A DNA stretch of 64,000 nt from a virus (IMGVR_UViG_3300050011_000542:1-64000), one strand, 5' to 3'. Positions 5,608 to 38,567 are shown, counted from the stretch's first letter. Numbers and translations: made by a program. The notes: a model not told the origin generated them from the sequence alone.

Positions 5608-5789
5608 ATTTCATCTTCTGGTCCGATACCAATGAGCGTCTGTGGCAGGACGCCGTAGACGCCGCAGGCTTCGATGTACGCTATCAGGTGATCCAGTCAG
5701 GCTCACGAAACTGCGGGGTGTTTACCGGCAATCTGCCAGACAGCCTGATAGACCTCGCTAAAGAGCTGGGCGCTGACATTATAGATTAG
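5604..5789 (+). CDS. Hypothetical protein
   Basis: ATGA overlap with terL, AAGGAG RBS. Confidence 0.6.
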   Translation: MNFIFWSDTNERLWQDAVDAAGFDVRYQVIQSGSRNCGVFTGNLPDSLIDLAKELGADIID

Positions 5790-5804
5790 ACCAAGGAGGG
5801 TCAT

Positions 5805-6278
5805 GTGCGTAACTACGAAGTGATCGAACGCTGCGTTCTCGCCACCATGCTAGGGTCTGTTGTAGAGAGCCTGCAGAGGCAGGGAATGACTCTGCGAGCA
5901 GATGTGCTCAAATACCTGAACACGGCTGCAGCGGCCCCGCTGGGCGCACTACGGCCCGCTGAAGTGGGTGTGCATGCCCGACACGCTGTCGATATGTCAG
6001 ACGCCCTGCTGAAATCCATTAATGAAGACGATCTCCGTACCGTGCTGTTGATCGTGTGTCTCTTTATCGAGAAGCTGGTTGACGAAGGCTTGTTCGTGGA
6101 TGTGCAGAATCAAGCTGTGCTGATAGCCATGCTGATTGTTACCGAAGCCAAGGAAGATGAAGGAGCGGGCTGGCCCGCCTTGCAAGACCGTCTGATGATG
6201 AGAGCCAGCAACCTGGTTTGTCGAGCCCAGTTGCTGGGGTACTTTACTCAGCTAACCATGAAGCCAATCCTGCATTAG
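5805..6278 (+). CDS. Hypothetical protein
   Basis: ORF with AAGGAGG RBS in a hairpin. Confidence 0.7.
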   Translation: MRNYEVIERCVLATMLGSVVESLQRQGMTLRADVLKYLNTAAAAPLGALRPAEVGVHARHAVDMSDALLKSINEDDLRTVLLIVCLFIEKLVDEGLFVDVQNQAVLIAMLIVTEAKEDEGAGWPALQDRLMMRASNLVCRAQLLGYFTQLTMKPILH

Positions 6279-6289
6279 TCGCTATTTAA

Positions 6290-6317
6290 TTGACCTCTGC
6301 ACGGGGCCAGGTACTTT
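6290..6317 (+). promoter_or_regulatory. Putative sigma70-type promoter TTGACC-N16-TACTTT
   Basis: Intergenic, upstream of the PPDK block; same 16-nt spacer architecture at 11597, 59849 and 62213. Confidence 0.4.
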
Positions 6318-6352
6318 AACCCGTACCAAATTCCTACACCAATGAGGGTGTC

Positions 6353-6565
6353 GTGCAGAAGTCAGCTCTCGAAGTTCACGGCCTGTTAAAAGCCAAGGGC
6401 GGCAAAGTCCAGGCTTGGGTGCAACTCGCGCCTGGTCATGGGTTGTTCGTGTATGTGGAAAAAGGACATCTGGCCGATGGGCTCAAGATGTTCAGTTCCG
6501 CCCTCAAGATCGAAGTGGCCGAAATGGAAGACGGCACCCCGATGCTGGGAGGGCCGGCAGCATGA
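6353..6565 (+). CDS. Hypothetical protein
   Basis: ORF coupled (ATGA) to PPDK-like gene. Confidence 0.65.
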   Translation: MQKSALEVHGLLKAKGGKVQAWVQLAPGHGLFVYVEKGHLADGLKMFSSALKIEVAEMEDGTPMLGGPAA

Positions 6566-8634
6566 TCAAACTCTCCGATATCGTGCGCTTTTCCAAAGAT
6601 TTGAACGCATACGACTACATTACAGAAAAAGGCGAAGAGGCTGCTATAGCCAGGCTAGGAGGTAAGGGCCAGGGCTTGGTCGCCATGACCCTGTTAGGCA
6701 TCCGCGTTCCCCCAGGCTTTATCATCGGGACGGACTGGTGCAATCAATTTCAGCAAGATCCAGAGGGGGTGATGGAGGCGGCGAAAGCCGATCTGCCGGC
6801 CCATCGTAGTTGGATGCAGCTGAGCAGCGTAGCTGGCAAGGATCATCTGGTTTCGGTTCGGTCAGGCGCCCCGGTGTCAATGCCAGGAATGATGGACACC
6901 ATCCTTAATGTCGGTCTCACCAAAGAGACTATGGGTATCTGGGAGAAGAAGCTGGGCCGGCGCACGATGCTCGACTGCTACCGGCGACTGATCTCGATGC
7001 TGGGCACTACGGCTTACGATATTCCGGCCGATCGCTTTGCTATGATCCTGGACAAGATGAAAAACCAGGAGGCTGTAAATAGTGACAAGGATTTAAATGC
7101 TAATGCGCTGGAAGCTATAATAGCCGAGAGCCTGGTGTTGTTCAAAGCCAGCACCGGCAAGGATTTCCCCGATACGGTCGAAGAGCAACTGCTTGTTTCA
7201 ATCGAGACGGTGTTCAAATCCTGGAACAGTGAAAGAGCCAAGATTTATCGTAAGCTCGAAGGCATACCAGACGACCTGGGCACTGCTGTTACCGTTCAGA
7301 TGATGGCCTTCGGCAATCTTAATGAGCAGTCTGGGACAGGCGTGATGTTCTCACGGAATCCCAATACGGGAGAGAACACGCCACTGATCGAGTATCTGGA
7401 CAACGCCCAGGGCGAGGATGTGGTTGCCGGTATCAGGACGCCTTATACCCCTACCGACAAGAAGATGCTGATGGAGTTGAAGAGCATCCTCTACACTCTG
7501 GAACAGATGTACCAGGACATGGTGGATGTCGAGTTCACCGTGCAGGATGGCGTGATCTACGTGCTGCAATCCCGCAAGGGAAAGCGCACGGCACGGGCGG
7601 CTGTCAAAGTGTGGCTCGACATGGATGGTAGCCTGGCTGGCTTTAAGAAGCGGGTAACGCGCAAGCAGCTGCATCAGTTGTTCAAGCCCCAGCTAGACCC
7701 GAGTTTTAAGGCGCCTCCGATGTTCGAGGCTCTCGGGGCGAGTGCTGGTTTCGCCCAGGGCGAGGCAGTGTTCTCGGCCCAGGCTGCAATCGATTGCAAT
7801 GCCGCAGGCAGGCCCTGCATCCTCGTCCGCTCCGAGACTTCTCCTGACGATATCGGAGGCATGGAAGCAGCCAAGGGAGTGCTCACAGCGACAGGTGGCA
7901 GCACATCTCACGCGGCCGTCGTGGCGAGAGGCAGAGACAAGCCATGCGTGGTCGGCTGCACGGCCCTGACATTCCATGAAGACGGCACTGTAGACCTGGG
8001 CGACGTGCTCCGCGAGGGTGACAAGATCGCGATCGACGGCGATACTGGCAGGGTATGGCGTGACGTAGACCTGCCGGTTATATCGGCCGAAGGCAGCGAG
8101 CTTGTCGCCAAAGCTTGCGAGTCGCTGATGTACGATTTAGCCAAGCGAGGGATTGAGATAGCTAAACAAATTATCGATCCTTATGCCTCGACCTTTCTAT
8201 CTTTTTCAGAAGTAGCCGCCGATGCGCTAGTGTTGTATGATCTAACATTGCCAAGTCACAAATTAGAAGACTCAGACTTAGAGTTTCTGGACAGCTGTGG
8301 AAAGACGGTTGATCTAAGCCAAGACCTGGCGACTATGGCTATAACTGCAGCTGCTTTACAGCAGGCTCCAGACAATTGTTACGCTCTGTATCCTTACCGC
8401 AAGAAGTCACCTGATTTGCCTGCCAAAAGGCGTTATGGCCCAGCCCCGGTATCGGTTGGCGAGGCTCTATTCAAAACCACGCCTTGTCAGGTAGCCATGG
8501 AGAGCATCATCGAAGTCGGTCGTTTGCAGGGTTTCCATAAGCTCCGGGCAGCCTTGAAAAAGTCGGGCACCGTAGCACCCTTGTTTCAGGTTGTGCCTTT
8601 AGAGTATGCTTTGTTTTCAGTTCTAGCCGACTAG
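6562..8634 (+). CDS. PPDK-like dikinase: ATP-grasp plus phosphohistidine swivel domain, lacking the pyruvate/PEP TIM barrel
   Basis: LGGKG, VPPGF, LVSVRSGAPVSMPGMMDTILNVG, GTAVTVQMMAFGN, NAQGEDVVAGIRTP, DVEFT, LQSR, ETSPDDIGGM, GGSTSHAAVVARG; about 690 aa with an unrelated C-terminal about 130 aa. Confidence 0.9.
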   Translation: MIKLSDIVRFSKDLNAYDYITEKGEEAAIARLGGKGQGLVAMTLLGIRVPPGFIIGTDWCNQFQQDPEGVMEAAKADLPAHRSWMQLSSVAGKDHLVSVRSGAPVSMPGMMDTILNVGLTKETMGIWEKKLGRRTMLDCYRRLISMLGTTAYDIPADRFAMILDKMKNQEAVNSDKDLNANALEAIIAESLVLFKASTGKDFPDTVEEQLLVSIETVFKSWNSERAKIYRKLEGIPDDLGTAVTVQMMAFGNLNEQSGTGVMFSRNPNTGENTPLIEYLDNAQGEDVVAGIRTPYTPTDKKMLMELKSILYTLEQMYQDMVDVEFTVQDGVIYVLQSRKGKRTARAAVKVWLDMDGSLAGFKKRVTRKQLHQLFKPQLDPSFKAPPMFEALGASAGFAQGEAVFSAQAAIDCNAAGRPCILVRSETSPDDIGGMEAAKGVLTATGGSTSHAAVVARGRDKPCVVGCTALTFHEDGTVDLGDVLREGDKIAIDGDTGRVWRDVDLPVISAEGSELVAKACESLMYDLAKRGIEIAKQIIDPYASTFLSFSEVAADALVLYDLTLPSHKLEDSDLEFLDSCGKTVDLSQDLATMAITAAALQQAPDNCYALYPYRKKSPDLPAKRRYGPAPVSVGEALFKTTPCQVAMESIIEVGRLQGFHKLRAALKKSGTVAPLFQVVPLEYALFSVLAD

Positions 8635-8643
8635 GAGTGTCTG

Positions 8644-8955
8644 GTGCCTCTCATTCTCACGCTAAAGCAAGGCGAAGGTTTCACGGTCGGAGACAAGACC
8701 GTCATCGTCGACAAGATCCTGTCGGAGACGCAGTTTATCCTGCGGGTAGCTGGCGGCGAGGTTGTCGCGGTAGACGATATGAAAATGACGAAAATCGCCC
8801 CGGGAGTGAGAGTGATGTCGGGCACTCGTGGACAAAACACGCTGGCACGGGTATGTATCGAGGCTCCCTTGGATATGAAGATCCATCGGCGCCAAGGATA
8901 CAGCAATGCCCATTCCGAGAGGCGACATCAATACGGACGGGCTGGGCCGCTATAG
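8644..8955 (+). CDS. Divergent CsrA/RsmA-like RNA-binding translational regulator with internal insertion
   Basis: LILTLKQGEGFTVGD aligns with CsrA LILTRRVGETLMIGD; RVCIEAPLDMKIHR aligns with RIGVNAPKEVSVHR including the R44 equivalent; AGGAG RBS. Confidence 0.75.
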   Translation: MPLILTLKQGEGFTVGDKTVIVDKILSETQFILRVAGGEVVAVDDMKMTKIAPGVRVMSGTRGQNTLARVCIEAPLDMKIHRRQGYSNAHSERRHQYGRAGPL

Positions 8956-9229
8956 CCTGGCAGAAGGGATTGTAGAGGCTGCTAAGGCTCAGGGGCTATT
9001 CGGTAATGTTGCGGGCTTCATACTCCGCGCTGCCAGCGAGTCAGGTCCCTACAAGCACCCAGAGGGCAACAGGAGATACTTTAACTACCTGCTCGATATC
9101 CAGGGCGGCGTAGTTGTCGGGATTAAGCGTATGGACAGCGACACGCCAATGTCGCGGGCCGGTGCCAAGAAAGCAGACTTGTCTAAGGAAATCGTGGCCC
9201 AGGTGATAAAGAAGCATCTGGGCGGGTAA
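8906..9229 (+). CDS. Hypothetical protein
   Basis: ORF filling the operon gap. Confidence 0.6.
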   Translation: MPIPRGDINTDGLGRYSLAEGIVEAAKAQGLFGNVAGFILRAASESGPYKHPEGNRRYFNYLLDIQGGVVVGIKRMDSDTPMSRAGAKKADLSKEIVAQVIKKHLGG

Positions 9230-9256
9230 CACCATGCAACTCCATGGAGGGAGCAA

Positions 9257-9766
9257 ATGGGCAAGCGTAAAGAAGCCGAGCAGCGTCATGCAATTAGTTG
9301 CAACGGCAGCTTTCATCTTTGGTTTATGGGCTACAAGGTAAAGGTTGTCGGGGCACCGTTCCGCAACTTTGTCAAGGCCAAGCCGACTGTGTGCCTGCTC
9401 GAAGAAATTCCGCAATGGATGACAGCCGGCGTTCATCTGCCGATCCAGGACTTTAAGACCCCAGAGATTGGCGAGTTGGAAACCGCCCTGATCAAGTCAG
9501 CTGCCTTGATGGGAGAACATCGTGAGCTCTATGTAGGCTGTGCTGGCGGCTACGGTCGTACAGGGACGTTTCTAGCAGCCCTGGTCAAGATCGCCGACAA
9601 GCCCCCGGCTCACGCAGTGTTCTATGTGAGAGCGGTCTACCACCACAAGGCTGTTGAAACAACCGACCAGTTCAGACTGGTTGAACAATGGAAGCCCAGC
9701 TTCTGGTTCATGCTCAAGTTCAAATGGAGCTTTGTGAAAGGTGTATTCCGGTATCTCTTTACCTAA
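9257..9766 (+). CDS. Cys-based protein-tyrosine/dual-specificity phosphatase-like protein
   Basis: LPIQDF acid loop, VGCAGGYGRTG (CX5R), AVETTDQ. Confidence 0.85.
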   Translation: MGKRKEAEQRHAISCNGSFHLWFMGYKVKVVGAPFRNFVKAKPTVCLLEEIPQWMTAGVHLPIQDFKTPEIGELETALIKSAALMGEHRELYVGCAGGYGRTGTFLAALVKIADKPPAHAVFYVRAVYHHKAVETTDQFRLVEQWKPSFWFMLKFKWSFVKGVFRYLFT

Positions 9767-9813
9767 GACCGTCACTCCCATACGATCGGTTTTATAGGTA
9801 AAGGAGAGGCGTA

Positions 9814-10899
9814 ATGTTGCCTTTTGACACTCTCGGGCATCATCGAGAGAGGCCGGTTAAAAAGAAACTCGATCTGTCATCGGTTCCGGTCGGGGCGGTT
9901 TCGAAGAAGGCCAAGGCATACACCGATAAGCCAATGGTCGAGCCCGTCCATGAAGCGGCCTGGTTCTACGTGTATAGTCAGGCCGACCAGGCGATAGCGA
10001 AGCAGTATCATCCACTGGAGCCACTGCCCCAAGACGTGCTCGATATCGTGATCGACCGCATGGACCACATGAATCGTCTGGCAACCCGGATGTTCTACTA
10101 CCTGCTGGTGGTATGCACCCGCGAGGCTCGGCACGAGCATGGCACTCTTGACTATGAGTTCATGTCTCAGGAGTTCGGCCCCGAAGCCTCTACCTTTCAT
10201 CAGTCGATTAAGTCGAGTGGAGAACAGGGGGCTGTTGGCAAGCTCTATAATCACCCGCCCCTGATGGGCCTGGGCGCTTATACTCGCTCTTTGCAGCACA
10301 TCTTCTACAAGGGCGGTTTTAACGGAGGTTATGGAGGCCCGAAGTGGGGCAGCATAGCTGACTGCCTAGCCTCCTATGCGACCGGCCAGACCACTGGCGA
10401 GGAAATGATCGATACCGCCTTTACGCTGGAGCACAATGGCGGGGCGATGTTTAACAAGAATGTGTTCTTTAGCTTTGCTCACAGTCAAATTCATAAGATT
10501 TTGGATGTTCAGAGGTCGGGGCAAGTTCCGGCTCTGATGATGGCCCCGGTCGGTCAATATCCAAAAAAGTACATACCAGAAGGTATCCTTGAACAGATAC
10601 TGAAGATGAGAAATGTCCTCGGAGAGGATTTCATCGACCGCGCTTATGTGGATTGGTACAAGGTAATGGCCTTGGGCTCTATCCATGACTATTGGGGGTA
10701 CACGACTGCCCAGAAGGAAGTCCACGGCGATAGCCAGTGGGAAGCCCAGGCAGAGAAAATGAAGAACAAACCCGCGAAACAGAATGTGCCTGATTTTAAT
10801 AAGATGCTCGCTACGAAAGAGCCGGCTTGGACGAAAGAAACCCATTTCATCCTGCCAGGGCAGCTCGGCGCCTTGAAGAAACTGGCGAGGGCCGCATGA
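9814..10899 (+). CDS. Conserved-looking hypothetical phage protein
   Basis: 361 aa, AAGGAG RBS, motif-like segments REARH, GGYGGPKW, IDTAFTLEHNGG. Confidence 0.75.
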   Translation: MLPFDTLGHHRERPVKKKLDLSSVPVGAVSKKAKAYTDKPMVEPVHEAAWFYVYSQADQAIAKQYHPLEPLPQDVLDIVIDRMDHMNRLATRMFYYLLVVCTREARHEHGTLDYEFMSQEFGPEASTFHQSIKSSGEQGAVGKLYNHPPLMGLGAYTRSLQHIFYKGGFNGGYGGPKWGSIADCLASYATGQTTGEEMIDTAFTLEHNGGAMFNKNVFFSFAHSQIHKILDVQRSGQVPALMMAPVGQYPKKYIPEGILEQILKMRNVLGEDFIDRAYVDWYKVMALGSIHDYWGYTTAQKEVHGDSQWEAQAEKMKNKPAKQNVPDFNKMLATKEPAWTKETHFILPGQLGALKKLARAA

Positions 10900-11600
10900 C
10901 CGCTACAGTCAGTCGTTTCGACGAATACCTGTTCGATAAGGACGACGATATGTCCAAGAAGAAGGGTCACAGTCACGGGTATGGTCTTAATGACTTTGGC
11001 CTGGGCAAGTGTGCCCTGTCGCATCCTGCCCTGGTGATAGGCGACCACAAGATCTGGGGCGGCTCGTGCGTGGCCCCGGCCATTACCGATTGTGATGTCT
11101 ACATAGGCTTCGACCGAGGCATGGGACTGACCGCCAAGCGGTTTCCCTGGACTAGCGGCCACGAGTTCCTGTTTCCGATCCCCGACATGGGTGTGCCCGC
11201 CACTGTCCCGACTTTCAGGGCGTTGGTAAAATGGACTGCCCAGCAGCTGGAAGAAGGTTTGAAGGTGCATTGCGGCTGTATAGGAGGCCACGGCCGCACC
11301 GGCACGTTCCTAGCCGCCCTGGTCAAGGAAATGACCGGCAACGAAGACGCCATCGAATATGTGCGCGAGCACTACTGCAAGAAGGCTGTTGAGTCGAACG
11401 AGCAGATAGCCTTTCTGGTCAAGAATTTCGGCATCAAGTCGACCAAGGCCAACAAGGTATGGAGTCACAGCCCAGCCAAGTCAGCTATCAAGTGGCCAGC
11501 CCAGACAGGCAGTAGCAAGGCAGCAGCTGTAAATGCCAACAGCAACACTTTCTTCCCGATGAAGACCGGCTACACGCTATTTACTGCCGGTAAAACTTGA
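10896..11600 (+). CDS. Second Cys-based PTP/DSP-like phosphatase
   Basis: FPIPDMG, HCGCIGGHGRTG (CX5R), KAVESNEQ; ATGA coupling. Confidence 0.85.
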   Translation: MTATVSRFDEYLFDKDDDMSKKKGHSHGYGLNDFGLGKCALSHPALVIGDHKIWGGSCVAPAITDCDVYIGFDRGMGLTAKRFPWTSGHEFLFPIPDMGVPATVPTFRALVKWTAQQLEEGLKVHCGCIGGHGRTGTFLAALVKEMTGNEDAIEYVREHYCKKAVESNEQIAFLVKNFGIKSTKANKVWSHSPAKSAIKWPAQTGSSKAAAVNANSNTFFPMKTGYTLFTAGKT

Positions 11601-13130: not shown

Positions 13131-13352
13131 ATGGCCGCACTAAAATTAGGAACGACTTCTGAATTTATAGAGTTTGTTAGGCAAGGTACTCAGATTCATG
13201 TCTTCATTCGTGAGAAGGCGTGCCCAGAAACCAAAAACAAACCGTCTCATTGTGAATTCACGCTGGGTATGGCCGAGGCTGAGAAACTAGCAGCGTGGTT
13301 ACAGAGACGAGTTTCACCACGGACGGTGATTGATGCTAACGATCTGGACTGA
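13131..13352 (+). CDS. Hypothetical protein
   Basis: ORF with AGGAG RBS. Confidence 0.6.
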   Translation: MAALKLGTTSEFIEFVRQGTQIHVFIREKACPETKNKPSHCEFTLGMAEAEKLAAWLQRRVSPRTVIDANDLD

Positions 13353-20429: not shown

Positions 20430-20464
20430 GCTGCAATCGATTGCAATAACCACGGATGGTAACA

Positions 20465-38312: not shown

Positions 38313-38551
38313 AAATTTTCCTAGCGCCGGTCCTTGTCGGGCTCTTGCTAGGAGCCTGCGCCGCCGACCGGCCCCGGCCTATCGAAATTAAAGGCCCTCT
38401 CGTAGATGGCCCAGTTGCCGACGCTTCACCTGCGCGCCGAACTGCCCCGTCAAATACCACCGAAACTGATTATCGAATTGATAAGCTTGAGAATTCCGTT
38501 CAGCAATTGAAAGACACGTTGTCGGCGCCCCCAGCGCCACAAGGCCACTGA
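38309..38551 (+). CDS. Small lipoprotein (o-spanin-like)
   Basis: Lipobox LLLGAC, Pro-rich, overlaps the preceding gene. Confidence 0.5.
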   Translation: MKIFLAPVLVGLLLGACAADRPRPIEIKGPLVDGPVADASPARRTAPSNTTETDYRIDKLENSVQQLKDTLSAPPAPQGH

Positions 38552-38567
38552 CCAATGAGGGTCTACC

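Follow-up and report, generated by a model that had tools for sequence, protein, structure and literature searches.

What does a phage do with a CsrA-like protein whose strands are separated by a long insert, and which RNAs would such a protein bind? Few bacterial regulators of translation have been studied as closely as the CsrA proteins, and to our knowledge the structural variation of these proteins is so far limited to the strand-swapped dimer and the helix-insert form of RsmN/RsmF. The question is raised by an open reading frame (ORF) at positions 8644-8955 of a 64,000-nucleotide stretch of viral DNA (IMGVR_UViG_3300050011_000542:1-64000; hereafter the window), part of a 95,216-bp record that IMG/VR classes as a provirus with an estimated completeness of 99%. 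Judged by its sequence, the ORF is a real gene, and its product (P0001) is a true but divergent member of the CsrA superfamily. We give roughly even chances to the following reading of its function: P0001 is a divergent CsrA-type protein with a β insert, it forms a unit with a partner of RelE-type fold encoded by the next gene, and its ligands are hairpins at the phage's own ribosome-binding sites. The gene, its Shine-Dalgarno sequence and the segments of its product are as follows.

8644-8955, + strand: CsrA-like gene (P0001), GTG start, stop codon 8953-8955, 103 aa
8633-8637, + strand: AGGAG Shine-Dalgarno of the CsrA-like gene, 6 nt 5' of the GTG, overlapping the stop codon of the PPDK-like gene
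8644-8694, + strand: residues 1-17, CsrA-like β1-β2, with L3 and L5 equivalent to CsrA L2 and L4
8695-8805, + strand: residues 18-54, insert with four β strands predicted by AlphaFold
8806-8901, + strand: residues 55-86, CsrA-like β3-β5 with A74-P75 and R82, aligned with CsrA 24-48
8902-8952, + strand: residues 87-103, basic tail, predicted disordered; the partner gene overlaps its final 47 nt together with the stop codon

The Pfam CsrA model (PF02599) matches P0001 in two stretches with an E-value of 8.5e-6 and 26.1 bits (curated cut-off 27), the NCBIfam CsrA equivalogs match weakly (17.8-22.6 bits; cut-offs 70-73), and the PHROGs match is a 'CsrA-like regulator' (E 0.0025). A phmmer search of all PDB sequences returned six matches, every one of them CsrA, RsmA or RsmE. 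In this alignment CsrA residues 2-20 correspond to residues 3-21 of P0001 and CsrA 24-58 to residues 60-96, with 38 extra residues between the two pieces, at the β2/β3 junction. An earlier note, made from the DNA alone, had described a CsrA homologue with an insertion of about 40 residues, and the two-piece alignment given by Pfam and phmmer agrees with it; the profile searches that it named as a check did find CsrA. The note had also placed the β strands and an Arg44 equivalent in the CsrA register, and R82 (codon 8887-8889) indeed falls at the Arg44 position, within a motif I-H-R that is V-H-R in CsrA. The set of CsrA residues that contact RNA (L2, L4, V42, R44 and A36-P37) is matched by L3, L5, I80, R82 and A74-P75. 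The proposal that a basic tail replaces the C-terminal helix stands in part: no helix is predicted, but in the HMMER alignment residues 84-96 still correspond to the beginning of the CsrA helix, and the tail consensus across the family (R-G-E-x-Y-R) is similar to R-E-E-I-Y-Q-R of CsrA. The tail would therefore be a degenerate remnant of the helix, not a clean replacement.

P0001 belongs to a large family. A four-sequence profile searched against 1.84 billion cluster representatives retrieved 721 proteins at E <= 1e-3, of which 263 reached E <= 1e-10; with few exceptions the members have 82-120 aa and are matched from end to end, the insert included. When 140 members were aligned, 106 of them individually matched Pfam CsrA at E <= 0.01 (best 1.7e-9), and no other family recurred. 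A profile of the 140 found 11 sequences in the PDB, exclusively CsrA, RsmA, RsmE, RsmF and RsmN (best E 6.7e-5). The similarity to CsrA thus exceeds chance. The residues equivalent to the RNA contacts are widely kept (L3 in 137 of the 140, L5 in 109, A74 in 138, P75 in 133, I80 in 113 and R82 in 129), and arginine or lysine occupies the CsrA R31 position in 130. The insert is 36-40 residues long in 127 members, a constancy that indicates a fixed, selected part of the protein.

The earlier note had called this a new CsrA subfamily. As a distinct and large group with a conserved insert and Arg44 equivalent the subfamily holds, but its name is not entirely new: in the ESM Atlas P0001 adjoins clusters of 88-101 aa that automatic pipelines have named 'carbon storage regulator', and a gene beside a phosphatase in a dikinase-carrying Vibrio phage has been labelled CsrA, without analysis (PMC12038007). 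None of the papers that a literature search turned up deals with the insert, with the partner and the fusions, or with the set of hairpin ribosome-binding sites. The note's further ideas, that the insert may be a sensing or interaction module, that it could account for a tolerance of AATGAG loops, and that the subfamily would be orthogonal to the host, are conjectures. Two tandem-repeat proteins, P0030 (1326 aa) and P0145 (1363 aa), gave 10-13 short matches to the family profile around A-R-V-x-I-x-A-P; these are probably a repeat artefact rather than homology.

The fold of P0001 was predicted as a monomer by AlphaFold2 with a four-sequence alignment. The model has a mean predicted local distance difference test score (pLDDT) of 79.6, about 90 over residues 1-85, and a predicted template modelling (TM) score of 0.70. 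It is a compact domain of nine strands without a C-terminal helix, and residues 86-103 are predicted to be disordered (pLDDT < 50). Four of the predicted strands (residues 18-25, 30-35, 39-44 and 49-52, pLDDT about 90) lie in the insert. In a VIA search, the model aligned with RsmN/RsmF chains (4kji, 4k59, 4krw) at Z 4.3-4.5, with a root-mean-square deviation of 2.0 Å over 48 residues and 38% identity; the superposition spans β1-β2 and β3-β5, as the CsrA fold proposed in the earlier note would lead one to expect. No strand-swapped CsrA or RsmE chain was among the VIA matches listed. The highest-ranking of these (class II fusion protein domain I, CcsBA/CcmF and an S-layer domain, Z 5.5-7.8) are at background level, and we treated them as generic β sandwiches. 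Foldseek gave no match to the PDB at E <= 1e-3. In BFVD, eleven viral proteins modelled independently have this fold (E <= 1e-3, TM-score up to 0.77); one is called 'carbon storage regulator'.

RsmN offers a precedent for an insert at this junction. A 16-residue helix between its β2 and β3 redirects the chain, giving a dimer that is not swapped, in which each monomer contacts one RNA hairpin through β1, β5 and Arg62; the protein binds ANGGA in hairpin loops, and the ACGGAN hexaloop is the recognition motif of RsmE on hcnA (PMC3791407). From the model we infer that P0001 is an RsmN-type protomer with a β meander in place of the helix. A β insert of 36-40 residues instead of a helix of about 16 makes it a parallel variant, not an RsmN orthologue. 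Mean-field direct coupling analysis of the 140 sequences was noisy; its best ladders join β2 with β5, β3 with β4, and the inserted strand 30-35 with β3, which would fit an insert that extends the CsrA sheet and is too weak to fix topology or sheet order. We also considered an internal duplication, in which two CsrA halves would form a single-chain pseudo-dimer, and found no support for it in the sequence: hhalign of the halves of the 140-member alignment gave a probability of 1.7%, and self-alignment revealed no repeat, the short strands leaving both comparisons with low power.

Candidate ligands are abundant in the phage's own genome. The motif CCANGGANGG occurs 38 times on the + strand and never on the - strand, against 2.4 copies expected from dinucleotide shuffles. 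With a five-base loop and an AATGAG variant admitted there are 56 sites, 49 of which lie directly 5' of the start codon of an ORF with at least 30 codons. In these 49 hairpins the third stem pair, next outside the fixed CC/GG, is Watson-Crick in 46, with four pair types, and the fourth forms in 36, compared with 12 in a shifted control. The loops read ACGGAG, ATGGAG, AAGGAG, AGGAG and ACGGAT, most of them containing GGAG. In about 50 phage genes the Shine-Dalgarno sequence thus falls within an A(N)GGA(G/U) loop of 5-6 nt on a covarying stem. Six examples are listed here.

20449-20460, + strand: hairpin ACC-ACGGAT-GGT, 4 nt before ATG 20465; the loop ACGGAU fits ACGGAN of RsmE/hcnA (PMC3791407)
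19370-19381, + strand: hairpin CCC-ACGGAG-GGG, before ATG 19385
5789-5802, + strand: hairpin GACC-AAGGAG-GGTC, before GTG 5805
9241-9252, + strand: hairpin TCC-ATGGAG-GGA, before ATG 9257 of the first phosphatase of the module described below
13315-13328, + strand: hairpin CACC-ACGGAC-GGTG, before TTG 13330 of DNA polymerase I
38550-38563, + strand: GGA-less variant GACC-AATGAG-GGTC, before TTG 38568

The GGA-less form with the AATGAG loop, CCAATGAGGG, has five copies against 0.1 expected (38550-38563, 6337-6350 and three more), four of them before starts. The Shine-Dalgarno sequence of the CsrA-like gene itself (8633-8637) has no CC...GG hairpin, and folding gave no stable hairpin there. With a definition free of stem sequence, counts before starts on the coding versus the other strand were 50 vs 1 in this genome, 50 vs 3 in the related contig G001, 31 vs 3 in Rhodobacter phage RcZahn and 5 vs 4 in Stenotrophomonas phage DLP_3. 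The density here is 0.54 hairpins per kb, compared with 0.02-0.14 per kb in 972 kb of unrelated viral DNA. That background came from contigs found by scanning IMG/VR for the 14-mer CACCAAGGAGGGTG; among the matches listed, most were single ones in unrelated contigs. The scan also led to contig G306, the hairpin-richest of the background contigs (30 motif copies vs 1), which carries the full gene module.

Other elements accompany the hairpins. A palindrome, TGCAATCGATTGCA, recurs with near variants 15-40 nt 5' of many starts across the region 17477-92726, often directly before a ribosome-binding-site hairpin (examples are 20432-20445 and the copies 5' of the starts 17477, 33116 and 42773); it looks like a phage promoter or operator element. 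When the window was searched with Rfam for sponge RNAs of the Csr type, the only match was a tRNA, encoded at 63168-63240 (RF00005, 63.7 bits) and followed directly by a hairpin of the ribosome-binding-site type at 63251.

The CsrA-like gene does not stand alone, as the next gene begins within it.

8906-9229, + strand: partner gene, 107 aa, with a G-N-R-R-F/Y motif that includes N55 and R57; overlaps the CsrA-like gene by 50 nt

A homologue of the partner directly follows the CsrA-like gene in every locus of the phage lineage that was examined, DLP_3 included, and seven proteins of 158-258 aa are matched by the hidden Markov models (HMMs) of both families, with the CsrA-like part N-terminal and the partner C-terminal. 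This constant adjacency, together with the fusions, implies that the two products act together. An ORF of 160 aa at the same position in the Vibrio phage VHB1, aligned by eye as a further fusion, was set aside because neither family HMM recognizes it at E <= 10; models of 160 aa in BFVD, which we take to be Vibrio phage proteins (names are absent from the tables), share the N-terminal domain fold at E 1e-4 to 6e-4. A word-index search found 115 clusters of the partner family, all 'hypothetical' and none with a Pfam domain, and homologues occur in Sinorhizobium and Nitratireductor chromosomes as well. N55 and R57 are invariant, and R38, R41, R44, R45, T50, G54 and F58 are nearly so.

We assign the partner, with moderate confidence, to the α-α-β4 fold of the RelE/ParE (BECR) type, on the strength of an AlphaFold model from ten sequences (the ESM Atlas model was too poor and was left unused). 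Its core has a pLDDT of about 90 and consists of helices 22-28 and 35-45 followed by strands 47-51, 54-58, 61-66 and 69-75. Against 48,161 PDB representatives, VIA gave 67 matches at Z >= 2; those listed (Z 5.4-3.5) are almost all RelE, ParE, HigB, YoeB, YafQ, MqsR, BrnT, colicin D, colicin E5-type, CdiA-CT, Cami1 and RNase A. The top Foldseek match is RelE (E 0.19). The partner may act by RNA cleavage, by ribosome binding or by neither.

Both genes have a fixed place in a module that the window shares with related phages.

6562-8634, + strand: PPDK-like kinase (Pfam), first gene of the conserved module
9257-11600, + strand: rest of the module, with a DSP-type phosphatase (9257-9766), a 361-aa protein (9814-10899) and a second phosphatase (10827-11600)

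The genome, that of a phage of alphaproteobacterial type, is related to Rhizobium phage RHph_Y1_11, to RcZahn and to the Stenotrophomonas phages DLP_3 and DLP_5. We compared neighbourhoods in four GenBank phages, 11 IMG/VR contigs and four Reyranella contigs. In two of the GenBank phages and 11 distinct IMG/VR contigs the gene order is large terminase, a small gene, PPDK-like kinase, CsrA-like gene, partner, phosphatase, a protein of about 360 aa, second phosphatase, further genes and DNA polymerase I, and the position of the CsrA-like gene is conserved in 15 related loci. It is a core gene of the ~100-kb phage lineage of RHph_Y1_11, RcZahn and DLP_3, labelled hypothetical in the GenBank entries of RHph_Y1_11 (EVC30_139) and RcZahn (gene 7).

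Several of the neighbours have peculiarities of their own. The PPDK-like kinase matches only the Pfam families PPDK_N and PEP-utilizers (swivel); Pfam detected no phosphoenolpyruvate/pyruvate-binding domain in it, and its C-terminal ~140 residues are without a match. The two phosphatases are paralogous and DSP-type (Pfam PTP-SAK / Tc-R-P). In PHROGs their family (phrog_17568) goes by the name 'thymidylate synthase'. The counterpart of the second phosphatase has that same name in DLP_3, whereas in VHB1 it is annotated 'pyruvate decarboxylase'; all these annotations are probably mistaken. Four Reyranella genomes (L018-L021, positions 6001-6320 in each) contain a CsrA-like copy outside the module, with threonine in place of the arginine and the sequence L-I-V-T-G-A-K-K. 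When the module proteins of the window were compared with the four loci by BLASTP, no homologue of the dikinase, the partner or the phosphatases came up, and L021 alone showed a terminase fragment. The 'L-T-G' subtype recurs in the fusions P0136 and P0137 as well as in Reyranella. The member in G306 (L156:1501-1776) combines a complete module and a hairpin-rich genome with threonine at the arginine position.

How these parts would work together can be outlined as follows. P0001 keeps the parts with which CsrA contacts RNA, namely the β1 leucines, the A-P turn and the β5 arginine. Its insert, placed at the RsmN/RsmF junction, would make it a self-contained domain with one β1/β5 RNA-binding face. 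The CsrA-like protein and its small arginine-rich partner, a single polypeptide in some phages, would form one working unit. The most likely ligands would be the ~50 short hairpins with the Shine-Dalgarno sequence inside the loop that the phage mRNAs themselves contain, and binding there could set the translation or the mRNA fate of about a third of the phage's genes. A bolder version, which we entertain only tentatively, is that the two-part or fused device reads a phage 'hairpin Shine-Dalgarno' code, one domain docking on the A(N)GGA loop while the other acts on the mRNA or the ribosome, either by a GG/AG cut as in T4 RegB or by licensing initiation. If this were true, about one third of the phage's genes would be under a control private to the phage wherever the host lacks a Csr system, and the protein would be the first of the CsrA family to be coupled to an effector domain, as well as the first single-site, non-dimeric form.

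A number of observations weigh against the hairpin-binding unit. We infer the link between protein and hairpins from resemblance and co-occurrence, and the hairpin-rich genomes all belong to one phage lineage, so the association may reflect shared ancestry and not function. DLP_3 has both genes and the arginine, with no enrichment of hairpins; conversely, G306 is rich in hairpins while its CsrA-like protein has threonine at the arginine position. The idea, which we considered, that genomes with the arginine are also those with many hairpins fails on these two cases. The stems are weak (-2.6 to -6.4 kcal/mol) and singly not distinguishable from shuffles, and the hairpins could merely present the Shine-Dalgarno sequence to ribosomes. 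They precede the polymerase and genes of the structural region besides small genes, a spread that does not fit a simple early shut-off. As to the proteins, P0001 scores 0.9 bits below the Pfam cut-off. The partner, as a single sequence and as 10- and 101-member profiles, has no match in Pfam, PHROGs, PADLOC or the PDB sequences; its predicted fold comes from a ten-sequence model with Z-scores of at most 5.4, and it has no obvious catalytic histidine or glutamate.

Some of these observations would be accommodated if the protein were a host-directed regulator that binds host mRNAs or small RNAs at GGA sites and so reprograms the cell, the phage hairpins being an unrelated initiation architecture. 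Action of phage RsmA on host targets, cas mRNAs among them, has been proposed (PMC8450108), DLP_3 retains both genes although it is not enriched in hairpins, G306 keeps the hairpins with a protein that lacks the arginine, and weak hairpins could serve only to expose the Shine-Dalgarno sequence. However, most hosts of the lineage have no Csr system to hijack. Canonical CsrA was found in 60 of 301 sampled Alphaproteobacteria genomes, and none was found in the three Reyranella genomes that carry relatives of the CsrA-like gene, in rough agreement with the earlier note's statement that csrA is absent from most alphaproteobacterial chromosomes; S. meliloti has likewise been reported to be devoid of csrA (PMC7366521). 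The phage copies described in the literature are close to bacterial CsrA and track CsrA-positive hosts, whereas the present family is divergent, and the fixed place in a phage-specific kinase/phosphatase module with an obligate partner points to a role internal to the phage. We regard host-directed action as unlikely.

Less probable still, in our view, is a toxin-antitoxin-like pair, in which the RelE-fold partner would be the toxin (an mRNA interferase or gyrase poison) and the CsrA-like protein would neutralize it, for maintenance of a plasmid prophage or for superinfection exclusion. A small upstream gene followed by an overlapping gene of RelE/ParE-like fold is the arrangement such a pair would have, the related phage DLP5 has been reported to persist as a phagemid (PMC5834331), and relatives reside in Reyranella, Sinorhizobium and Nitratireductor chromosomes. 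Yet the seven natural fusions are at odds with classical type II antitoxins, for which fusion to the toxin is rare; the CsrA RNA-contact residues conserved here would not be needed in an antitoxin; the pair is core and occupies one fixed place throughout a lytic and temperate lineage, not that of a mobile cassette; and nothing in it matches PADLOC or Pfam toxin models. Least probable is that the CsrA-derived domain binds no RNA and serves as a protein-protein adaptor or substrate in a circuit of the PPDK-like kinase and the phosphatases: its invariant place between these genes, the insert that makes a nine-stranded domain, the lost helix and the loss of the arginine in some members would suit such a role, but the arginine persists in 129 of 140 members and L3, A74 and P75 in nearly all, positions that contact RNA in RsmN (PMC3791407), and the many conserved arginines of the partner are what one would expect if it binds nucleic acid.

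We thus consider the CsrA-like gene a new structural variant paired with a new partner, for which binding of the phage's hairpins is a plausible mechanism. The family would add to the CsrA proteins a third architecture, a β insert at the same junction as the RsmN/RsmF helix, and a fixed protein partner with a predicted toxin-type RNase fold. It would come with a candidate regulon of ~50 covarying GGA hairpins in a phage that has cultured relatives (RcZahn, RHph_Y1_11), and it bears on the old question of how large phages time translation without RegA/RegB of the T4 type. A possibly monomeric, single-site binder of GGA hairpins could also serve as an orthogonal RNA tool. Were the hairpins unrelated, the locus would still hold a well-defined, widespread and unstudied phage gene pair.

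Compared with canonical CsrA, P0001 is homologous over β1-β2 and β3-β5 and keeps the equivalents of L2/L4, A36-P37, V42 and R44. CsrA has about 60-75 aa, five strands and a C-terminal helix, whereas P0001 has 103 aa, nine predicted strands and no helix, and, judging from the model, is probably not strand-swapped. The candidate ligands resemble the CsrA consensus from hcnA and from systematic evolution of ligands by exponential enrichment (SELEX), with GGA in a hexaloop closed by a C-G pair. With RsmN/RsmF of P. aeruginosa (PDB 4kji, 4krw, 4k59) P0001 has in common the insertion point between β2 and β3, the lack of the C-terminal helix and the arginine equivalent to CsrA R44. The inserts differ, an α helix of ~16 residues ending in Gly-Ile in RsmN/RsmF and 38 residues of predicted β structure in P0001, which in addition is phage-encoded and always paired, sometimes fused, with a second protein. 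The sequence similarity of the family to RsmN is not above its similarity to CsrA.

Copies of CsrA on phages and plasmids are known (PMC7366521, with 30 phages; PMC8450108). These copies are described as closely resembling bacterial CsrA, and their presence as correlated with CsrA-positive hosts, in contrast to the divergent family described here, found with hosts that mostly have no CsrA. The partner has in common with RelE/ParE toxins the predicted α-α-β4 fold, a size of ~70-100 aa and the overlap with a small upstream gene, and the RelE/ParE superfamily dominates its structure-search lists. It differs from these toxins in having no sequence-profile match and in the positions of its conserved arginine, asparagine and threonine residues. 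The antitoxins of RelE/ParE systems are ribbon-helix-helix, helix-turn-helix or Phd proteins, whereas the protein encoded upstream of the partner is CsrA-like, and fused forms exist.

The nearest precedents for phage-encoded post-transcriptional control at ribosome-binding sites are RegA and RegB of phage T4. RegA is a translational repressor of many phage mRNAs. RegB, which has a RelE/YoeB fold, cuts GGAG in the Shine-Dalgarno sequences of phage mRNAs (PMC3014915), and the present pair recalls it in coupling a partner of predicted RelE fold to a domain of the type that binds GGA loops, a likeness of fold and target that we draw without any claim of sequence relation. RegB is inhibited by RNA structure and uses the host ribosomal protein S1, whereas the partner described here is accompanied by a CsrA-like protein, and the hairpins also precede genes of late type.

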